In this document: piece by piece, positions 5,163 to 30,171 of the stretch
Numbering within the stretch: the first letter of the stretch is position 1
How the letters are laid out: the number at the start of each line of letters is the position of its first letter
DNA from: Escherichia coli
GTDB lineage: Bacteria > Pseudomonadota > Gammaproteobacteria > Enterobacterales > Enterobacteriaceae
Reading direction: 5' to 3' (one strand)
DNA: 64,000 nucleotides
NCBI RefSeq assembly: GCF_001677475.2
Contig: NZ_CP015229.1
Made by a program: the position numbers and the translations under genes
The notes under the pieces: model-generated
What the model saw: only the letters and a program-made list of their open reading frames with translations
Told to the model about the DNA's origin: nothing
Databases searched by the model: none

Positions 5163-7049
5163 ATGTCTTTTAGCGAATTTTATCAGCGTTCGATTAACGA
5201 ACCGGAGAAGTTCTGGGCCGAGCAGGCCCGGCGTATTGACTGGCAGACGCCCTTTACGCAAACGCTCGATCACAGCAATCCGCCGTTTGCCCGTTGGTTT
5301 TGTGAAGGCCGAACCAACTTGTGCCACAACGCTATCGACCGCTGGCTGGAGAAACAGCCAGAGGCGCTGGCGCTGATTGCCGTCTCTTCGGAAACAGAAG
5401 AAGAGCGCACCTTTACCTTCCGCCAGTTACATGACGAAGTGAATGCGGTGGCCTCAATGCTGCGCTCGCTGGGTGTGCAGCGCGGCGATCGGGTGCTGGT
5501 GTATATGCCGATGATTGCCGAAGCACATATTACTCTGCTGGCTTGCGCGCGCATTGGCGCTATTCACTCGGTGGTGTTTGGGGGATTTGCCTCGCACAGC
5601 GTGGCGGCGCGAATTGATGATGCTAAACCGGTGCTGATTGTCTCGGCTGATGCCGGAGCGCGCGGTGGCAAAATCATTCCCTATAAAAAATTGCTCGACG
5701 ATGCGATAAGTCAGGCGCAGCACCAGCCACGCCATGTTTTGCTGGTGGATCGCGGGCTGGCGAAAATGGCACGCGTCAGCGGGCGGGATGTCGATTTCGC
5801 GTCGTTGCGCCATCAACACATCGGCGCGCGGGTACCGGTGGCGTGGCTGGAATCCAATGAAACCTCCTGCATTCTCTACACCTCCGGCACGACCGGCAAA
5901 CCTAAAGGCGTGCAGCGTGACGTTGGCGGATATGCGGTGGCGCTGGCGACCTCGATGGACACCATTTTTGGCGGCAAAGCGGGCGGTGTGTTCTTTTGTG
6001 CTTCGGATATCGGCTGGGTGGTGGGGCATTCGTATATCGTCTACGCGCCGCTGCTGGCGGGGATGGCGACTATCGTTTACGAAGGATTACCGACCTGGCC
6101 GGACTGCGGCGTGTGGTGGAAAATCGTCGAGAAATATCAGGTTAGCCGGATGTTCTCAGCGCCGACCGCCATTCGCGTGCTGAAAAAATTCCCTACCGCT
6201 GAAATTCGCAAACACGATCTTTCGTCGCTGGAAGTGCTCTATCTGGCGGGAGAACCGCTGGACGAGCCGACCGCCAGTTGGGTGAGCAATACGCTGGATG
6301 TGCCGGTCATCGACAACTACTGGCAGACCGAATCCGGCTGGCCGATTATGGCGATTGCTCGTGGTCTGGACGACAGGCCGACGCGGCTGGGAAGCCCCGG
6401 CGTGCCGATGTATGGCTACAACGTGCAGTTGCTCAATGAAGTCACTGGTGAGCCGTGTGGTGTCAATGAGAAAGGGATGCTGGTGGTGGAAGGACCATTG
6501 CCGCCGGGCTGTATTCAGACCATCTGGGGCGATGACGACCGCTTTGTGAAGACTTACTGGTCGCTGTTTTCCCGTCCGGTTTACGCCACGTTTGACTGGG
6601 GTATCCGCGACGCTGACGGTTATCACTTTATTCTCGGGCGTACCGACGATGTGATTAACGTTGCCGGGCATCGGCTGGGAACGCGCGAGATTGAAGAGAG
6701 TATTTCCAGTCATCCGGGCGTTGCCGAAGTGGCGGTGGTTGGGGTGAAAGATGCGCTGAAAGGGCAGGTGGCGGTGGCGTTTGTCATTCCGAAAGAGAGC
6801 GATAGTCTGGAAGACCGCGACGTGGCGCACTCGCAAGAGAAGGCGATTATGGCGCTGGTGGACAGCCAGATTGGCAACTTTGGCCGCCCGGCGCACGTCT
6901 GGTTTGTCTCGCAATTGCCGAAAACGAGATCCGGAAAAATGCTGCGCCGCACGATCCAGGCGATTTGCGAAGGACGCGATCCGGGGGATCTGACAACCAT
7001 TGATGATCCTGCGTCGTTGGATCAGATCCGCCAGGCGATGGAAGAGTAA
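5163..7049 (+). CDS. prpE: Propionyl-CoA synthetase
   Basis: 628 aa ORF with acyl-CoA synthetase AMP-binding motif YTSGTTGKPKG. Confidence 0.96.
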   Translation: MSFSEFYQRSINEPEKFWAEQARRIDWQTPFTQTLDHSNPPFARWFCEGRTNLCHNAIDRWLEKQPEALALIAVSSETEEERTFTFRQLHDEVNAVASMLRSLGVQRGDRVLVYMPMIAEAHITLLACARIGAIHSVVFGGFASHSVAARIDDAKPVLIVSADAGARGGKIIPYKKLLDDAISQAQHQPRHVLLVDRGLAKMARVSGRDVDFASLRHQHIGARVPVAWLESNETSCILYTSGTTGKPKGVQRDVGGYAVALATSMDTIFGGKAGGVFFCASDIGWVVGHSYIVYAPLLAGMATIVYEGLPTWPDCGVWWKIVEKYQVSRMFSAPTAIRVLKKFPTAEIRKHDLSSLEVLYLAGEPLDEPTASWVSNTLDVPVIDNYWQTESGWPIMAIARGLDDRPTRLGSPGVPMYGYNVQLLNEVTGEPCGVNEKGMLVVEGPLPPGCIQTIWGDDDRFVKTYWSLFSRPVYATFDWGIRDADGYHFILGRTDDVINVAGHRLGTREIEESISSHPGVAEVAVVGVKDALKGQVAVAFVIPKESDSLEDRDVAHSQEKAIMALVDSQIGNFGRPAHVWFVSQLPKTRSGKMLRRTIQAICEGRDPGDLTTIDDPASLDQIRQAMEE

Positions 7050-7054
7050 AGTAT

Positions 7055-7320
7055 TGTCGGATGCGTCGCGCGCCGCATCCGACACCATGCGCAGATGCCT
7101 GATGCGACGCTGGCGCGTCTTATCATGCCTACAGGTCTGAACCGTAGGTCGGATAAGGCGCTCGCGCCGCATCCGACACCGTGCGCAGATGCCTGATGCG
7201 ACGCTGGCGCGTCTTATCATGCCTACAAGTCTGAACCGTAGGTCGGATAAGGCGCTCGCGCCGCATCCGACACCGTGCGCAGATGCCTGATGCGACGCTG
7301 GCGCGTCTTATCATGCCTAC
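7055..7320. repeat. REP/BIME array: about three tandem ~95 bp units containing GCCGCATCCGACA...TGCCTGATGCGACGC palindromic units
   Basis: Near-identical units visible at ~7066, ~7161 and ~7256; typical E. coli extragenic palindromes after an operon end. Confidence 0.9.
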
Positions 7321-7472
7321 CCACTGTTTTTACACCGATAATTTTTCCCCCACCTTTTTGCGCTCATTCATATAAAAAATATATTTCCCCACGGAAACGA
7401 TTGCTTTTTATTTTCAGATGAATAGAATGCGGCGGATTTTTTGGGTTTCAAACAGCAAAAAGGGGGAATTTC

Positions 7473-7844
7473 GTGTCGCAAGATAACAACTTTAGCCAGG
7501 GGCCAGTCCCGCAGTCGGCGCGGAAAGGGGTATTGGCATTGACGTTCGTCATGCTGGGATTAACCTTCTTTTCCGCCAGTATGTGGACCGGCGGCACTCT
7601 CGGAACCGGTCTTAGCTATCATGATTTCTTCCTCGCAGTTCTCATCGGTAATCTTCTCCTCGGTATTTACACTTCATTTCTTGGTTACATTGGCGCAAAA
7701 ACCGGCCTGACCACTCATCTTCTTGCTCGCTTCTCGTTTGGTGTTAAAGGCTCATGGCTGCCTTCACTGCTGCTGGGCGGCACCCAGGTTGGCTGGTTTG
7801 GCGTTGGCGTGGCGATGTTTGCTATTCCGGTGGGCACCACATAG
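7473..7844 (+). pseudogene. codB: Cytosine permease CodB, 5' fragment (about 121 native codons) ending in 2 foreign codons and a stop created by the island junction
   Basis: Translation MSQDNNFSQGPVPQSARKG...VAMFAIPVG then TT*; the native continuation KATGLDIN... is found at 30919. Confidence 0.9.
7833..7836. other. Left island/chromosome junction (attL-like), GGCA shared with the right junction
   Basis: Native codB identity is lost after 7836; GGCA recurs at 30919-30922 where codB resumes. Confidence 0.6.
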
Positions 7845-7921
7845 GTCAATACCACCACAATAAAATTTTCCAATAAAAAAGCCCCATCACAAGGACAGGG
7901 CTATAGAATCAATTACTTACA

Positions 7922-8227
7922 TCACTTAATGTCTTTCATTCTACGAATACGCGCGCTTGCTTCGGATAGTTCTTCCAGTGTTACGTGATGTGCAAGCATA
8001 TAGACAGGAGTCGGATCGAATCCCTCGTGAGTATTGATCAGATGACTATTCCCGCCTTTAAACTCATCCTGTCCATCCCATATAGCGTACACGTCATCTT
8101 CTGCTACATAGATAATCAATCCAATAGGGGAGTCAGTAAGCTGGAAGATGCAGCCAGTAGAATCAATGCGATGTTCCCGAACGTCATCAACAGTTTCAAA
8201 GTCAATCTTAATATCTTTAGTCTTCAT
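7922..8227 (-). CDS. Hypothetical protein (101 aa), first gene inside the island's left end
   Basis: ORF only; no recognisable motif. Confidence 0.45.
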   Translation of the reverse strand: MKTKDIKIDFETVDDVREHRIDSTGCIFQLTDSPIGLIIYVAEDDVYAIWDGQDEFKGGNSHLINTHEGFDPTPVYMLAHHVTLEELSEASARIRRMKDIK

Positions 8228-8527
8228 GATTTGCCCTCGCGTGAAAAATATTTTCGATTATTTATAAAAAAAGACTTGACAAAATCAAAAGGTACTGTTC
8301 CACTGGTGAAATAAAGGGAGTTTTCGGCACCCCGGTTTTTGATGTGCGTGTGAGATTTCAAAACAGGTGCAGTGCAGCCCACCAGCGCGGTCGCTACGCG
8401 ACTATTAACACCCGCCAATCCCTTTCCCCGCCTCGATCTTTCATCTCGTTATAAATCGTTTTAGGCGCTCTCCTGAATGCGCAGATCAGATAAATAATTT
8501 TACGCAAATTTAAAGGAGGATAACCGG

Positions 8528-9079
8528 ATGAAAGAAGAATTAACCCTTACAGAAATTTCCCGCTTATACGGCTATACAATTAACGCCGCTAAGAAATGGC
8601 AAGAACGAGGAATGCCATTTAATACCAATACACGACGCGTACCAGCCAAAGAGGGGACCGAGTGGGTATTAAAAAATATCATCAACCCGCTTAAAGAAAC
8701 TACTGTCAAGGAACAAATCGACGTAGAGAAGTTACGCCGTGAGAGAGCATTAGCGGATGCAGCCGAACGAGAGAACCAGGAAGCAATGAATCTCCTGATT
8801 CCGGTCGGTTATGTAGAACAGGAACTAGCGGAATATTGCGGAAAGGTGAAACAGACTATTTTGCAGATCGCCACAATCGATGCTTTAGAAATTCTTGAAT
8901 CTGCCACTGACCAGAAAACATTGAAGAATAAGCTAAGGGAGATCATCGAGCGTCGTTTAAATGAAGTAGGGGACTTGTTCGAAAATGCGGATTTGGGAGA
9001 AGACGAGGAAGAAGAATTACCATTAATCGATGAACCGGAACAAGAACCAGAAGAAGACGATGAATTTGATGTGTCTTAA
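8528..9079 (+). CDS. Nu1-like small terminase / DNA-packaging HTH protein (183 aa) with acidic C-terminal tail
   Basis: N-terminus LTLTEISRLYGYTINAAKKWQERGMPF and EKLRRE segment resemble lambda Nu1 (QLADIFGASIRTIQNWQEQGMPV...EKLRRE); RBS AGGAGG upstream. Confidence 0.65.
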   Translation: MKEELTLTEISRLYGYTINAAKKWQERGMPFNTNTRRVPAKEGTEWVLKNIINPLKETTVKEQIDVEKLRRERALADAAERENQEAMNLLIPVGYVEQELAEYCGKVKQTILQIATIDALEILESATDQKTLKNKLREIIERRLNEVGDLFENADLGEDEEEELPLIDEPEQEPEEDDEFDVS

Positions 9080-9129
9080 AACGCGTTATAAATAAATGTA
9101 TGAAAGATGTTGAGCTGGTCAACGTCTAC

Positions 9130-9160
9130 GGGGGGAATCACCCCCCGCTAACCTTTTTCT
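9130..9160 (+). terminator. Rho-independent terminator after the Nu1-like gene
   Basis: GGGGGG-AATCA-CCCCCC hairpin followed by a T-rich tract. Confidence 0.55.
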
Positions 9161-9177
9161 TATTTGAGGATTTACCT

Positions 9178-9279
9178 ATGGTTGAATTTTTGATTTATCT
9201 GGCTGTAGGATTAACTATCGTATATTCACTGGCACATATTGGCATTTCTACTTTGTGTAACGCTTTCAAGTATCATTAA
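9178..9279 (+). CDS. Small hydrophobic peptide (33 aa, MVEFLIYLAVGLTIVYSLAHIGISTLCNAFKYH)
   Basis: Hand-translated short ORF below the ORF-track cutoff; single predicted TM helix; GGA-rich sequence upstream. Confidence 0.3.
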   Translation: MVEFLIYLAVGLTIVYSLAHIGISTLCNAFKYH

Positions 9280-9332
9280 TTAAATCGATGAATTGAACTA
9301 TAGATGATGGTCGTTTTCAAAGAGGATTATCT

Positions 9333-9506
9333 ATGGATCTTTTTGTCTATTTCGCTACTCTGCTGTTTTTGACTATCGTCGCTGGCATTAAATTGATTTT
9401 TATCTCGCTGGTGGTGTTTTTCAAATTTCTAATCGGTACGCCTTACGGCTGGGTATGCTTCTTCTTGTTTATTCTTTTTAGTTGCTGTAAATCAGACACT
9501 AAATAA
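9333..9506 (+). CDS. Small hydrophobic protein (57 aa, two predicted TM segments)
   Basis: Hand-translated ORF MDLFVYFATLLFLTIVAGIKLIFISLVVFFKFLIGTPYGWVCFFLFILFSCCKSDTK; RBS AGAGGA upstream. Confidence 0.35.
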   Translation: MDLFVYFATLLFLTIVAGIKLIFISLVVFFKFLIGTPYGWVCFFLFILFSCCKSDTK

Positions 9507-9801
9507 TATTGTAATCTGCCTTTCTCCTACATGGTTATTAACAGGGAATTTTCGAAAGAGAGTTCCCGATTAAAAGCCATAAAACACACTCCAGTACAGT
9601 GTTTTCATAGTCAGTGATCTATACATCATAAAAACATAACAAGTATAGATTGAGTGTTAATCCTCCCGCCCTTCGGGGCGGTTATTTTCTGGCTTTACTA
9701 GATAATGTAGCATCATGTTCATTATAAACCTCATCTTTGTTGTGCAAACCTAACCTTAACCTAAGTATAGGGAGTCTCTTAAATGGGACTCCCTTTTTTT
9801 A

Positions 9802-10044
9802 TTATGCAACCACTCGAAGTGTAGGTTTCTTATGTTGTGTAGGTTTATTGCCATTTCGCCACTCAGGAAACACCTGATCCATCATAACCGCGTTAGTTTC
9901 ATCAATCAGCTTTAGAGTCTTTCGTAATGCGGCGTTATCAGCTTTAAGCGATTTAATCTCTGAATCCATCTTAGCCATACGCTCTTTCATGTTGGTAATT
10001 TCTAACATCAGATTACCCAGAAATTCTTTGTTTTGATTAATCAT
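9802..10044 (-). CDS. Hypothetical coiled-coil protein (80 aa)
   Basis: ORF with heptad-like region MKERMAKMDSEIKSLKADNAALRKTLKL; last gene of a leftward 3-gene cluster. Confidence 0.45.
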   Translation of the reverse strand: MINQNKEFLGNLMLEITNMKERMAKMDSEIKSLKADNAALRKTLKLIDETNAVMMDQVFPEWRNGNKPTQHKKPTLRVVA

Positions 10045-10059
10045 AGAATTACCCCTCTA

Positions 10060-11046
10060 TTAAGCTGCGTATGCGTAGGCGCTGTAGTTGGTGTCGTAAA
10101 TCGCGTCATGTAATGCCATGTGTGCTTCGCGGATCTCGTCTTCGTTTACTTCAATCTCTTCTTGTTCTTCTTCGGTATCTTCCCAGCTAGTTTTGAATTT
10201 AGTCATAAAGTTGGTGCGCAGAGTTTCAAAGTTGGTAACTGGTGCGGATTCTGCTTCAACCGGAACCGGAACAACTACCGGATCAGCTTCTTGTTCTACT
10301 TCTTCACCGTTACCCCAGCGATAGTTAAGGAGTTCTTCATCAATGGATTTTTCTTCAACTGCTTTAACTTCAACCGCTGCTACTTCGAAAGTGGTTTCCT
10401 GTGCTGCCAGTTCAGCTTTCAGAGATGCGTTTTCAGCTTCCAGTTCAGCGATGCGTGCTTTCAGTGCTTCAACTTCGGAAGATTCAACCACTGCAACTTC
10501 TTCTTTAACTTCTTCAACTACTACCGGAGCAACTTCTTTCTGTGCTTCTTTTTTGCAGAAGAAGGAGGAAGTAACCTGTAATGCGTGGTTGTAGAAGGAA
10601 CCGCCTTTAGCGGTGTTAACAGTACCAGAAACATCTTTTACAGTGGATTCAGTAGCAACAGTACGGAAGCGTTTAGCAACTTCCTGGGTCTCTACGCCGT
10701 ATTCGTTGCGCTTGCTCTTGTGATGCATTACAGCACGGTAGCCGGAAGCAGTTTTAACAACAGCCAGATAGTAAGTTTCATCGGCTTTAACAGCACGAGC
10801 GAAGCAATAAACGGATTCACCTTCTACCAGTGTAGGTTTAACGTGACGTTTGTCGAAACGGTTAGTGATCTGCCATTCAGCACCGTCTTTGATGCCAGCA
10901 TTCTGACGCATTTCGGTCAGAGTCTTACCGGATACTACTTCAAAGGATTTGTCTTGTTTGCTTGCTTTACCTTCCATAACAGTAATGTTCAGTTTGCCGT
11001 TGGATTTAATAAACATGTTGAAGGTAATGCGCTTAGAATTTTTCAT
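10060..11046 (-). CDS. Hypothetical protein (328 aa): basic N-terminal domain, acidic coiled-coil C-terminal half
   Basis: ORF; C-terminal EVEALKARIAELEAENASLKAELAA and many E/D-rich stretches; no catalytic motif recognised. Confidence 0.5.
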   Translation of the reverse strand: MKNSKRITFNMFIKSNGKLNITVMEGKASKQDKSFEVVSGKTLTEMRQNAGIKDGAEWQITNRFDKRHVKPTLVEGESVYCFARAVKADETYYLAVVKTASGYRAVMHHKSKRNEYGVETQEVAKRFRTVATESTVKDVSGTVNTAKGGSFYNHALQVTSSFFCKKEAQKEVAPVVVEEVKEEVAVVESSEVEALKARIAELEAENASLKAELAAQETTFEVAAVEVKAVEEKSIDEELLNYRWGNGEEVEQEADPVVVPVPVEAESAPVTNFETLRTNFMTKFKTSWEDTEEEQEEIEVNEDEIREAHMALHDAIYDTNYSAYAYAA

Positions 11047-11163
11047 ATAAATACTCCTGAATACTCTGTGTTAGTTTTAATGTGTCATACTAAAAGCCTC
11101 CTTGCGCCAACAGGGAGGCTTTTTTATTTTTAAAGCCATCATATAATTCTCAGTGAAAGGTTA

Positions 11164-26328: not shown

Positions 26329-26613
26329 GTGCCCATGAGCGGTAAGCGTTATCCCGAAGAGTTTAAAATTGAAGCAGTCAAACAGGTTGTTGATCGCGGT
26401 TATTCTGTTGCCAGCGTTGCAACACGTCTCGATATCACCACCCACAGCCTTTACGCCTGGATAAAGAAGTACGGTCCGGATTCTTCCGCTAATAAAGAAC
26501 AGTCAGATGCTCAGGCCGAGATCCGCCGTCTCCAGAAAGAGCTGAAGCGGGTTACCGACGAACGGGACATATTAAAAAAAGCCGCGGCGTACTTCGCAAA
26601 GCTGTCCGACTGA
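26329..26613 (+). CDS. IS3-family transposase OrfA (HTH, leucine-zipper region)
   Basis: 94 aa ORF MSGKRYPEEFKIEAVKQVV...; ends shortly after the A7 slippery site. Confidence 0.85.
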   Translation: MPMSGKRYPEEFKIEAVKQVVDRGYSVASVATRLDITTHSLYAWIKKYGPDSSANKEQSDAQAEIRRLQKELKRVTDERDILKKAAAYFAKLSD

Positions 26614-27482
26614 GGTACGCCTTTATCCGTGACAACACCTGTTGCTGGCCTGTTCGCCTGCTCTGTCGGGTGCTGGATGTTCATCCCAGTGGTTTTTACG
26701 CCTGGCTTCAGCAGCCGCATTCACAACGCCATCAGGCAGACCTGAGGCTGACAGGGCAGATTAAACAGTTCTGGCTGGAATCGGGATGCGTCTATGGTTA
26801 TCGCAAAATCCATCTGGATCTGCGGGACAGCGGGCAACAGTGCGGAGTGAACAGAGTCTGGCGACTGATGAAACGTGTCGGGATAAAGGCTCAGGTCGGA
26901 TACCGGAGCCCGCGGGCACGTAAAGGCGAGGCCAGTATCGTGTCGCCCAACAGGCTCCAGCGACAGTTCAATCCGGATGCTCCGGATAAGCGTTGGGTAA
27001 CGGACATAACCTACATCAGGACCCACGAAGGCTGGCTGTATCTTGCCGTGGTTGTTGATCTGTTCTCACGCAAAATTATCGGCTGGTCCATGCAATCCCG
27101 GATGACAAAGGACATTGTCCTGAACGCACTGCTGATGGCTGTATGGCGCCGTAATCCCCAAAAACAGGTGCTGGTTCATTCGGATCAGGGCAGTCAGTAC
27201 ACAAGCCATGAGTGGCAGTCGTTCCTGAAATCACACGGCCTGGAGGGCAGCATGAGCCGTCGCGGTAACTGCCATGATAATGCGGTTGCAGAAAGCTTTT
27301 TCCAGTTGTTGAAACGCGAACGGATAAAGAAAAAGATCTACGGAACGCGGGAAGAAGCCCGCAGCGATATTTTTGATTACATCGAAATGTTTTATAACAG
27401 TAAGCGTCGGCATGGTTCCAGCGATCAGATGTCACCGACAGAATATGAAAACCAGTATTATCAACGGCTCGGAAGTGTCTAG
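26575..27482 (+). CDS. IS3-family transposase OrfB (integrase catalytic DDE domain), expressed as OrfAB by -1 frameshift; ORF-track ATG at 26670
   Basis: -1 frame relative to orfA, open from the slippery site; motifs WVTDITYIRT, VVDLFSRKIIGW, HSDQGSQYTS, NAVAESFF. Confidence 0.85.
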
Positions 27483-29757: not shown

Positions 29758-30171
29758 TTAAAGAATTTCACGGCAGCTAATCAGGGTATAAGATGTATCA
29801 CCTTTTTTAACATCAAATATAGGAGCGCCATCTACAGAATGCAGATATTTGATGTAGGATTTACCATCTTCGGAACCATAATATTCTTCTTTCTCGTTCT
29901 TATCTTCTTTCAGTTTCGGGCTTTTGATTGTTCTATCAAATACCGGATCGTTGAAAGCAAATTGACTATTATCATCATTCACGCGAACTTTCACACCGAT
30001 AAAGCCACGGTATTTTCCAGACGGTGCATGATAATAACGGTCGCCATCACTCAGGTAGCGTGTATCATCTCCTTTATGTTCGAAGTAGGAATTACACACA
30101 TAATAGGTATTAGCATTAGCAGTACCAACCAAACCCATAGCAAGAACGATACCAGCGATAATCTTTTTCAT
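29758..30171 (-). CDS. Exported protein (137 aa) with N-terminal signal peptide
   Basis: MKKIIAGIVLAMGLVGTANA signal-like N-terminus; two Cys residues; no other motif. Confidence 0.5.
   Translation of the reverse strand: MKKIIAGIVLAMGLVGTANANTYYVCNSYFEHKGDDTRYLSDGDRYYHAPSGKYRGFIGVKVRVNDDNSQFAFNDPVFDRTIKSPKLKEDKNEKEEYYGSEDGKSYIKYLHSVDGAPIFDVKKGDTSYTLISCREIL

Follow-up and report, generated by a model that had tools for sequence, protein, structure and literature searches.

The closest described counterparts of the genes discussed here are small membrane proteins of phages, the holins among them. Class I holins such as lambda S have three transmembrane (TM) segments with the N-terminus outside and the C-terminus inside (N-out/C-in), and class II is represented by S21, whose first TM segment, TMD1, is a separable regulatory helix. 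In lambdoid phages, non-orthologous replacement of one holin by another at a single genome position is typical. A holin gene is commonly adjacent to the endolysin gene, but this is not obligatory: T7 has its holin and spanin genes on either side of the small-terminase gene and well away from that for lysozyme, and its spanins gp18.5 and gp18.7 comprise a protein with a TM segment and a periplasmic domain, and a lipoprotein. Here, we focus on two small open reading frames, ORF1 and ORF2, that directly follow the terminase small subunit gene (terS) of a decayed prophage in Escherichia coli. They lie in a 64,000-nucleotide stretch of contig NZ_CP015229.1 (assembly GCF_001677475.2), which is termed the window below and to which all coordinates refer. 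The two encode small phage membrane proteins of a new orphan family, in which the unusual arrangement can be split, fused or order-permuted.

Two other systems provide points of comparison. HK97 gp15 is a small inner-membrane superinfection exclusion protein, encoded by a moron with a lower GC content than its neighbours and a terminator downstream (PMC3594210). LidI, the lysis-inhibition disruptor of the Vibrio phage satellite PLE, acts on lysis timing; it is a TM-only protein without homologues that was first left unannotated and was found by synteny, and its two size forms, of 66 aa and 121 aa, occupy one position (PMC7182436).

ORF1 and ORF2 are small and, combined, are predicted to have three TM segments, an N-out/C-in topology and a basic C-terminus, as do the class I proteins lambda S105/S107; the same layout is predicted for a single 94-aa protein that takes their place in some relatives. 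ORF2 alone is a two-TM hairpin like the class II pinholin S21, and the separable TMD1 of S21 is reminiscent of a separate one-TM partner, ORF1. The replacement of unrelated forms by each other at one genome position is a further trait shared with holins. The pair differs from holins in having no similarity in sequence or fold, in not lying beside an endolysin gene, in its very short charged tail and in the absence of a dual start, and a holin role would be proposed here by analogy. As in T7, where genes 17.5, 18 and 18.5-18.7 encode holin, small terminase and spanins, membrane-protein genes lie at terS and far from the gene for the muralytic enzyme; unlike the T7 spanins, neither ORF1 nor ORF2 has spanin features (an N-terminal lipobox, or an extramembrane domain such as a periplasmic one), and there is no homology. 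With HK97 gp15 and T4 Imm the likeness is that of a small inner-membrane phage protein without a soluble domain; gp15, however, is a YebO-family add-on, present or absent among relatives and with its own promoter, whereas here the position is always filled, no promoter is detected, and there is neither similarity to YebO nor co-variation with tail genes. Like LidI, the pair consists of unannotated TM-only proteins, and two size forms share one position; LidI differs in being a satellite protein that acts on the lysis inhibition of its helper, while the present genes belong to a decayed complete prophage and have no homology to it.

Two conserved genes downstream of terS

The gene directly 5' of the pair (8528-9079, + strand) encodes a Nu1-like terminase small subunit (TerS). 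Residues 1-164 of its product match PHROG 57 (terminase small subunit) with E = 2.6e-15, and Pfam Phage_Nu1 gives a weak match (E = 0.015); homologues of TerS that are 54-100% identical to it come from E. coli, Salmonella and metagenomes. ORF1 runs on the + strand from ATG 9178 to TAA 9279 and encodes 33 aa, MVEFLIYLAVGLTIVYSLAHIGISTLCNAFKYH. Its Shine-Dalgarno sequence GAGGA (9166-9170, + strand), 7 nt before the ATG, is kept in all loci that carry the pair (class A loci, defined below). ORF2 runs on the + strand from ATG 9333 to TAA 9506, encodes 57 aa, and has the Shine-Dalgarno sequence AGAGGA (9321-9326, + strand) 6 nt before its ATG. The original prediction of two small ORFs of 33 aa and 57 aa is thereby confirmed, each with a strong Shine-Dalgarno sequence.

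Its view of the products as membrane proteins also stands: both are nearly all hydrophobic helix, with a grand average of hydropathy (GRAVY) of 1.21 for ORF1 and 1.61 for ORF2, and purifying selection keeps this hydrophobicity. ORF1 (9178-9279, +) is a single-TM protein with an acidic N-terminus and a basic C-terminus, predicted to be N-out/C-in. ORF2 (9333-9506, +) is a two-helix hairpin whose turn contains Pro, Gly and Trp (TPYGW) and whose tail is basic (KSDTK); its AlphaFold2 model has two helices, residues 2-35 and 37-55, with a pLDDT of 84. The GC content of the pair is 32-36%, compared with 42% for the whole element, and hydrophobic codons explain part of this low value.

BLAST of 9080-9810 against loci fetched via the neighbouring TerS protein yielded 16 homologous loci with both ORFs, and in the alignment both frames are intact in all of them. 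Insertions and deletions (indels) affect none of the 276 coding columns, compared with 32 of 300 columns in the downstream non-coding DNA (Fisher 4e-10). Codon position 3 takes 20 of the 34 variable sites (p = 0.002), and the amino acid substitutions across the 16 loci are conservative. Conservation does not extend to the longer in-frame ORF that starts at ATG 9100, in which several loci have a 2-nt indel at 9114-9115. The distant metagenomic relative L026 keeps the layout of TerS, 33-aa ORF and 57-aa ORF, and its ORF2 is 68% identical at the protein level. Between L026 and the window the DNA of the ORFs differs by 15-20%, whereas the flanking non-coding DNA is nearly identical; the intergenic leader of ORF2, which contains its Shine-Dalgarno sequence (9280-9332, + strand), shows only two differences from L026, and one variable column in 53. 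Measured against L026, the ratio of non-synonymous to synonymous substitution rates (dN/dS) is 0.11 for ORF1 and 0.46 for ORF2.

Salmonella prophages whose TerS is ~70% identical carry a 59/60-aa two-TM ORF at this position, followed by a 33-aa one-TM ORF; this is the same pair of proteins in reverse gene order, each with its own Shine-Dalgarno site. The 33-aa peptides of the window and of Salmonella are identical at 14 of 33 positions without gaps (shuffle p = 1e-5), and the two-TM proteins have a (P)GW turn and a basic tail in common. For each of the two genes, comparison of two Salmonella variants gives a dN/dS of 0.25, and the leader that precedes the Salmonella two-TM gene is, as judged by eye, similar to that of ORF2 despite the swapped order. 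Conservation of the frames in related islands, which the original prediction named as its check, thus extends over E. coli relatives, L026 and Salmonella, with both frames intact in some 20 loci altogether.

Because the frames are intact and free of indels, with a third-position bias and a dN/dS below 1, comparative sequence evidence identifies ORF1 and ORF2 as genuine genes whose very small products are hydrophobic almost throughout. The contrary view, that they are chance ORFs in a non-coding spacer in which only the RNA elements are functional, can appeal to the AT-rich sequence and to the RefSeq (PGAP) annotation, which leaves the region empty in the E. coli genomes that carry the pair. 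It is contradicted by the preserved frames, the lack of indels, the dN/dS values of 0.11-0.46 and the conserved Shine-Dalgarno sites, and also by the conservation of both peptides in Salmonella despite their rearranged order, and we consider it extremely improbable. Small hydrophobic proteins are routinely missed by annotation, and comparative genomics rescues this conserved pair.

A profile search with ORF2 through 1.84 billion representative proteins returned one cluster, its own, and a word-index search with ORF2 gave seven close clusters. There was no match by tblastn of ORF2 to 50,697 phages and 72,556 plasmids, nor any match of ORF1, ORF2, their Salmonella versions or the 94-aa alternative in Pfam, PHROGs, NCBIfam and PADLOC. 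A search of the literature on this prophage family, or on TM genes after terS, found nothing relevant.

One slot, two kinds of occupant

The position 3' of terS can be viewed as a slot, which was compared across 38 informative loci. Class A loci carry the pair of a one-TM and a two-TM protein; class B loci carry a single 92-95-aa protein with three TM segments. The slot is filled in 38 of 38 loci by one or the other and is empty in none. In nine of the first 25 loci examined, the pair is replaced by one 94-aa ORF that encodes three TM helices. Similarity between class B loci and the window is confined to 9080-9157 and to the sequence from 9498 on, which makes the exchange a precise one between conserved flanks. 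Proteins of the class B type (92-95 aa) are also present in loci whose TerS is 79%, 74-77%, 70% (Salmonella), 58% and 54% identical, and both slot forms are found in both E. coli and Salmonella. Among complete E. coli genomes the pair is present in 27, and the flanking region only in ~35.

No association was found between the type of slot and the tape measure, tail-tip or endolysin genes or the nearby TM genes. In two of three class B prophages, identity is 93-100% for the tape measure protein, the tail-tip protein, the endolysin and both of the small TM proteins h92 and h56 (see below). In the third, STEC1575, the tape measure protein (37%) and the endolysin (77%) diverge, and this divergence is not linked to the type of slot. 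Since the exchange occurs on near-identical backbones, the class A pair and the class B protein are freely exchanged and presumably functionally equivalent.

The two forms show no significant similarity to each other by BLASTP or hhalign. Their last codons (-TK and the stop) are common to both, and these overlap an invariant DNA motif, ACTAAATAAT. The model of the class B protein has helices at residues 2-22, 26-62 and 67-93; its sole charged loop lies between TM1 and TM2, a Pro-containing turn joins TM2 and TM3, and the tail is basic, which by the positive-inside rule implies an N-out/C-in topology for the modelled protein. Position and topology make the pair probably the two-chain equivalent of this protein. 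ORF1, running from outside to inside, would be the counterpart of TM1, and ORF2, running from inside to outside, through a Pro-containing periplasmic turn and back inside to a basic tail, would correspond to TM2 and TM3; the split would then fall at the position of the only charged loop of the single protein. The locus offers a natural case in which a small membrane protein is made as one chain, as two chains, or as two in permuted order, an arrangement useful for studying the assembly of holin-like or exclusion proteins.

The interchange of the two forms bears on one account of their function, namely some other small accessory membrane role, either as a modulator of a host membrane protein in the manner of AcrZ or MgrB, or as a helper in phage replication, packaging or assembly. 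Extreme hydrophobicity, the lack of a pore-lining polar face in ORF2, the constant linkage to terS and the absence of similarity to any lysis or exclusion family would all suit such a role. Two interchangeable, non-homologous forms argue against a highly specific protein partner, however, and as a residual category the idea has no positive evidence of its own; we regard it as unlikely.

The host prophage and a possible role in lysis

The order of the chromosome in the window is prpE, codB, the inserted element, the remainder of codB, codA and lac, and the element (~7845-30912, 23 kb) splits codB. It encodes TerS, a Rha-like regulator, a lambda-type large terminase, a portal, a protease-capsid fusion and head-tail joining proteins; its tail-fibre gene terminates at an IS3 insertion sequence (26329-27482), and it also encodes a nuclease gene fragment and a 565-aa large serine recombinase. 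Full-length relatives of ~35.5 kb are inserted in hicB (ETEC4085, PK8568 and 2014EL-1346-6) or in ycdX (STEC1575), and their recombinases are 71-93% identical to that of the window. They additionally carry tail tube, tape measure and tail-tip genes, genes for two small TM proteins of 92 and 56 aa, and an M15 endolysin gene (PHROG 894, E = 1.7e-45), and a variable accessory region precedes the recombinase. Compared gene by gene, the window copy lacks everything from the tail tube through the endolysin, which identifies it as a 23-kb deletion remnant of a ~35.5-kb siphovirus-like prophage, with IS3 at the deletion junction. The remark in the original prediction that the island otherwise shows no lysis genes proves to be an artefact: lysis genes are absent from the window because the tail and lysis region was lost in the IS3-associated deletion, and the intact relatives encode the M15 endolysin. 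The window prophage is defective, and ORF1 and ORF2 are orphan genes there.

A reading of the island as a satellite, a capsid-forming phage-inducible chromosomal island (cf-PICI), was considered and rejected, as genes for tail tube, tape measure, tail tip and endolysin are all present in the full-length relatives. Packaging also sets the element apart, with an HNH-type system in cf-PICIs (10.1101/2022.09.08.507074) and Nu1/gpA-type genes here. Megablast of the element against phages gave no match and TerS had one match among phages at 33% identity; to judge from these two comparisons, no sequenced phage resembles the window element. A scan of genome contigs with a TerS alignment gave no match. 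The pair belongs to an uncharacterised prophage family of E. coli and Salmonella that uses large serine recombinases.

Three further loci of the family deserve mention. In a metagenomic contig (L064, 1-3146) the recombinase end runs straight into the terS end without intervening host DNA, a junction consistent with a circular or excised form of a related phage. A variable accessory hot spot between endolysin and recombinase (L069, 34306-37694) holds genes for a DEAD/DEAH helicase, a GIY-YIG nuclease and a hypothetical protein of 185 aa. A second such hot spot, at the left end of another relative (L001, 7292-8071), encodes an LprI-family lysozyme inhibitor where the window has a 101-aa gene (7922-8227).

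The region 3' of the tail-tip gene in the intact relatives (L036, 11867-13958; L066, 22899-24718) encodes, in order, the 92-aa protein (h92), which has an N-terminal Gly-rich TM segment and a coiled coil, the 56-aa TM protein (h56), a basic protein of ~200-227 aa, a 115-aa protein and the M15 endolysin (117 aa). There is no recognisable holin or spanin lipoprotein in this region, and a search of the late region for o-spanin or u-spanin lipoproteins found none. The endolysin lies at the other end of the prophage from the ORF pair, and in the circular form the recombinase and the attachment site would separate the two.

A possible reading, and the one that we tentatively favour, is that the two proteins come together in the inner membrane and influence its integrity or the timing of lysis during the lytic cycle. 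As with a holin and antiholin, the part of hole-former or modulator would fall to ORF2 and that of its partner to ORF1; the pair would then be neither an add-on gene expressed from the prophage nor the toxin of a toxin-antitoxin system. In support of a lysis role, the slot is core to these phages, never being empty, and the unit in it has the same orientation as terS, which precedes it; an endolysin is encoded by the intact phages, which have no recognisable holin and none adjacent to the endolysin gene. Each product is a small integral membrane protein with at least one TM segment, as judged by hydropathy and by the AlphaFold2 helices. By analogy, the combined ~90-aa, three-TM unit, N-out/C-in with a basic C-terminus, would have the layout of a class I holin, and ORF2 alone would be class II-like. 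If the pair were the holin of this E. coli and Salmonella prophage family, it would represent a new holin family with a two-component design.

Several observations weigh against a lysis role. No holin family is matched in Pfam (E up to 5), PHROGs or NCBIfam, and Foldseek of the 94-aa model against BFVD found nothing at E <= 0.001. The pair does not lie next to the endolysin gene in the intact relatives, where the 92-aa and 56-aa TM proteins are encoded nearer to it and could be the holin. At 4-10 residues, the basic C-terminal tails (KSDTK, KKDTK, GKGNKGKRNK and FKQTK) are short by the standards of holins, the TM segments are strongly apolar, with GRAVY values of up to 1.6, and there is no dual-start motif in the pair. 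No sigma-70 promoter is called on the + strand; the low GC content relative to the element is moron-like; and the description of the pair as a split three-TM protein draws on position and topology only, without homology between the two forms. The original prediction had called the ORFs holin-like or membrane-anchored: the membrane part holds, and the holin part is without a family match or adjacency to an endolysin gene.

The main rival to a lysis role, which we rank below it and regard as possible though doubtful, is superinfection exclusion or another form of protection at the membrane, in which the proteins, made from the prophage or early in infection, would insert into the inner membrane and keep the DNA of incoming phages from entering, as do HK97 gp15 and T4 Imm. 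Small inner-membrane proteins without a soluble domain are of the kind exemplified by HK97 gp15 (PMC3594210), and a GC content below that of the element together with a strong downstream terminator is moron-like. The coexistence and free swapping of two unrelated forms in E. coli and Salmonella, the rapid amino acid change set against nearly invariant flanks (a pattern common for conflict genes) and the accessory or defence-type genes at other hot spots of these phages point the same way. Set against this, a slot that is never empty in 38 relatives is unlike a typical add-on moron, which would be present in some relatives and absent from others. No independent promoter is detected: the terminator is present as in a moron, no sigma-70 promoter is called, and a TATAAATA-like motif at 9087 is only suggestive. 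The type of slot lacks the co-variation with the tape measure or tail-tip genes that gp15-type self-exclusion would predict, and neither YebO/gp15 nor any PADLOC model is matched. Were the pair an exclusion factor, a new membrane-level defence would be added to those described.

RNA elements and other features of the window

The pair is flanked by structured RNA elements. Between terS and ORF1 lies a two-hairpin leader on the + strand (hairpin A, 9105-9127; hairpin B, 9129-9147), followed 6 nt later by a U-rich run. Its fold has a minimum free energy of -28.4 kcal/mol (z = -3.3). Across 11 loci, 97.7% of cells are paired and five pairs are changed on both sides, a result reached by none of 500 shuffles. 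The leader is conserved in all slot classes and in Salmonella, and a U-G pair that never varies points to the + strand. Attenuation, processing or antitermination of the put-like type could be its function.

Downstream of ORF2, 9507-9690 (~180 nt, + strand) is a conserved structured RNA, either a 3' untranslated region (3'UTR) or a separate small RNA (sRNA), with z = -4.2. It consists of hairpin 1 (~9531-9580), a 10-mer (9602-9611), hairpin 2 (~9616-9651) and a terminator stem (9666-9681) whose T-run extends to 9690. Hairpin 1 has 14 pairs, eight of which show compensatory double changes and none of which is broken save for two gapped cells at the loop-closing pair; here too, an invariant U-G pair indicates the + strand. 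The 10-mer TTTTCATAGT does not vary across 12 loci, Salmonella among them, and this holds down to a TerS identity of only 54%. The GCCC-TTCG-GGGC hairpin of the original prediction is a real terminator, called on the + strand as CCGCCC-TTCG-GGGCGG (9666-9681) followed by TTATTTTCT, and forms the 3' end of the 9507-9690 RNA. A second + strand terminator (9769-9794 as called, with the element reaching to 9801) abuts the end of a convergent 80-aa gene, and its stem shows compensatory G/C swaps among loci. Terminator-like sites in the region number five, compared with 1.9 expected, and an Rfam scan of 7800-13000, which includes the 9507-9690 RNA, gave no credible family.

The complement of the 10-mer, ACTATGAAAA, sits exactly on the start codon of a 137-aa signal-peptide gene beside the recombinase (start at 30171, - strand), a placement kept in all prophages checked and in a divergent lineage, and it matches the start of the Rha gene (13463) at nine of ten positions. 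Since many genes begin with ATGAAA, pairing of the 10-mer with start-codon regions is no more than suggestive. The 9507-9690 RNA is a candidate phage sRNA or 3'UTR-derived sRNA. A more speculative proposal, improbable in its entirety, would join these observations to the slot: it may encode a new phage membrane effector that is equally functional as a three-TM chain, as a one-TM and a two-TM protein, or as these two in reversed order, that could be the missing holin of the lineage, and that may be co-regulated with a ~180-nt sRNA whose invariant UUUUCAUAGU complements the start-codon regions of two genes, one for the Rha-like regulator and one for a secreted protein of the prophage.

The flanking RNAs also bear on the idea that the ORFs encode type I toxin-like peptides, which would depolarise the membrane, be silenced by an RNA, and serve in prophage maintenance or abortive infection. 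The products, at 33 and 57 aa and with GRAVY values of 1.2-1.6, have the size and hydrophobicity of such toxins (<~60 aa, hydrophobic), structured RNAs flank the genes, and antisense read-through from a convergent - strand operon without its own terminator is conceivable. The conserved RNAs, however, lie on the genes' own strand, as their invariant U-G pairs indicate, and there is no conserved antisense promoter, a weak - strand site at 9424-9396 being destroyed in L026; a type I toxin is for these reasons very unlikely. Furthermore, there is no match to Hok, Ldr, Ibs, TisB, ShoB, Zor, DinQ or another such family in NCBIfam or Pfam, and the alternative occupant of the slot, a 94-aa three-TM protein, is atypical for type I toxins.

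The convergent genes, for the 80-aa protein and a 328-aa acidic coiled-coil protein (9802-11046, - strand), have no terminator of their own, and the only terminators between them and ORF2 are on the + strand; leftward transcripts could read antisense into ORF2, ORF1 and terS. In many relatives the two genes are replaced by others.

A TATAAAT(A) motif recurs on the + strand at 8450, 9087, 12582 and 13385, 50-95 nt upstream of terS, ORF1, a 156-aa gene and Rha, and possibly represents a class of promoter. The invariant motif that overlaps the ORF2 stop codon is related to it. As shared promoters, TATAAATA or CTAAATAA were set aside: both are suggestive, confounded with stop codons and AT-rich gene ends, and their count is not significant genome-wide or window-wide.

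Two other stretches of the window are rich in repeats. A 1.2-kb non-coding region (11400-12600) between divergent, early-looking operons contains several repeat families, with four copies of AAACCTACACTACAATCT-like units at 11824-11997, direct repeats of 43 nt and 35 nt, and an inverted repeat at 12402-12474; from its sequence it is a probable origin or regulatory region. Outside the element, tandem REP/BIME-like repeats between prpE and codB (7000-7330) give several repeated short ORFs, an ordinary feature of the chromosome.

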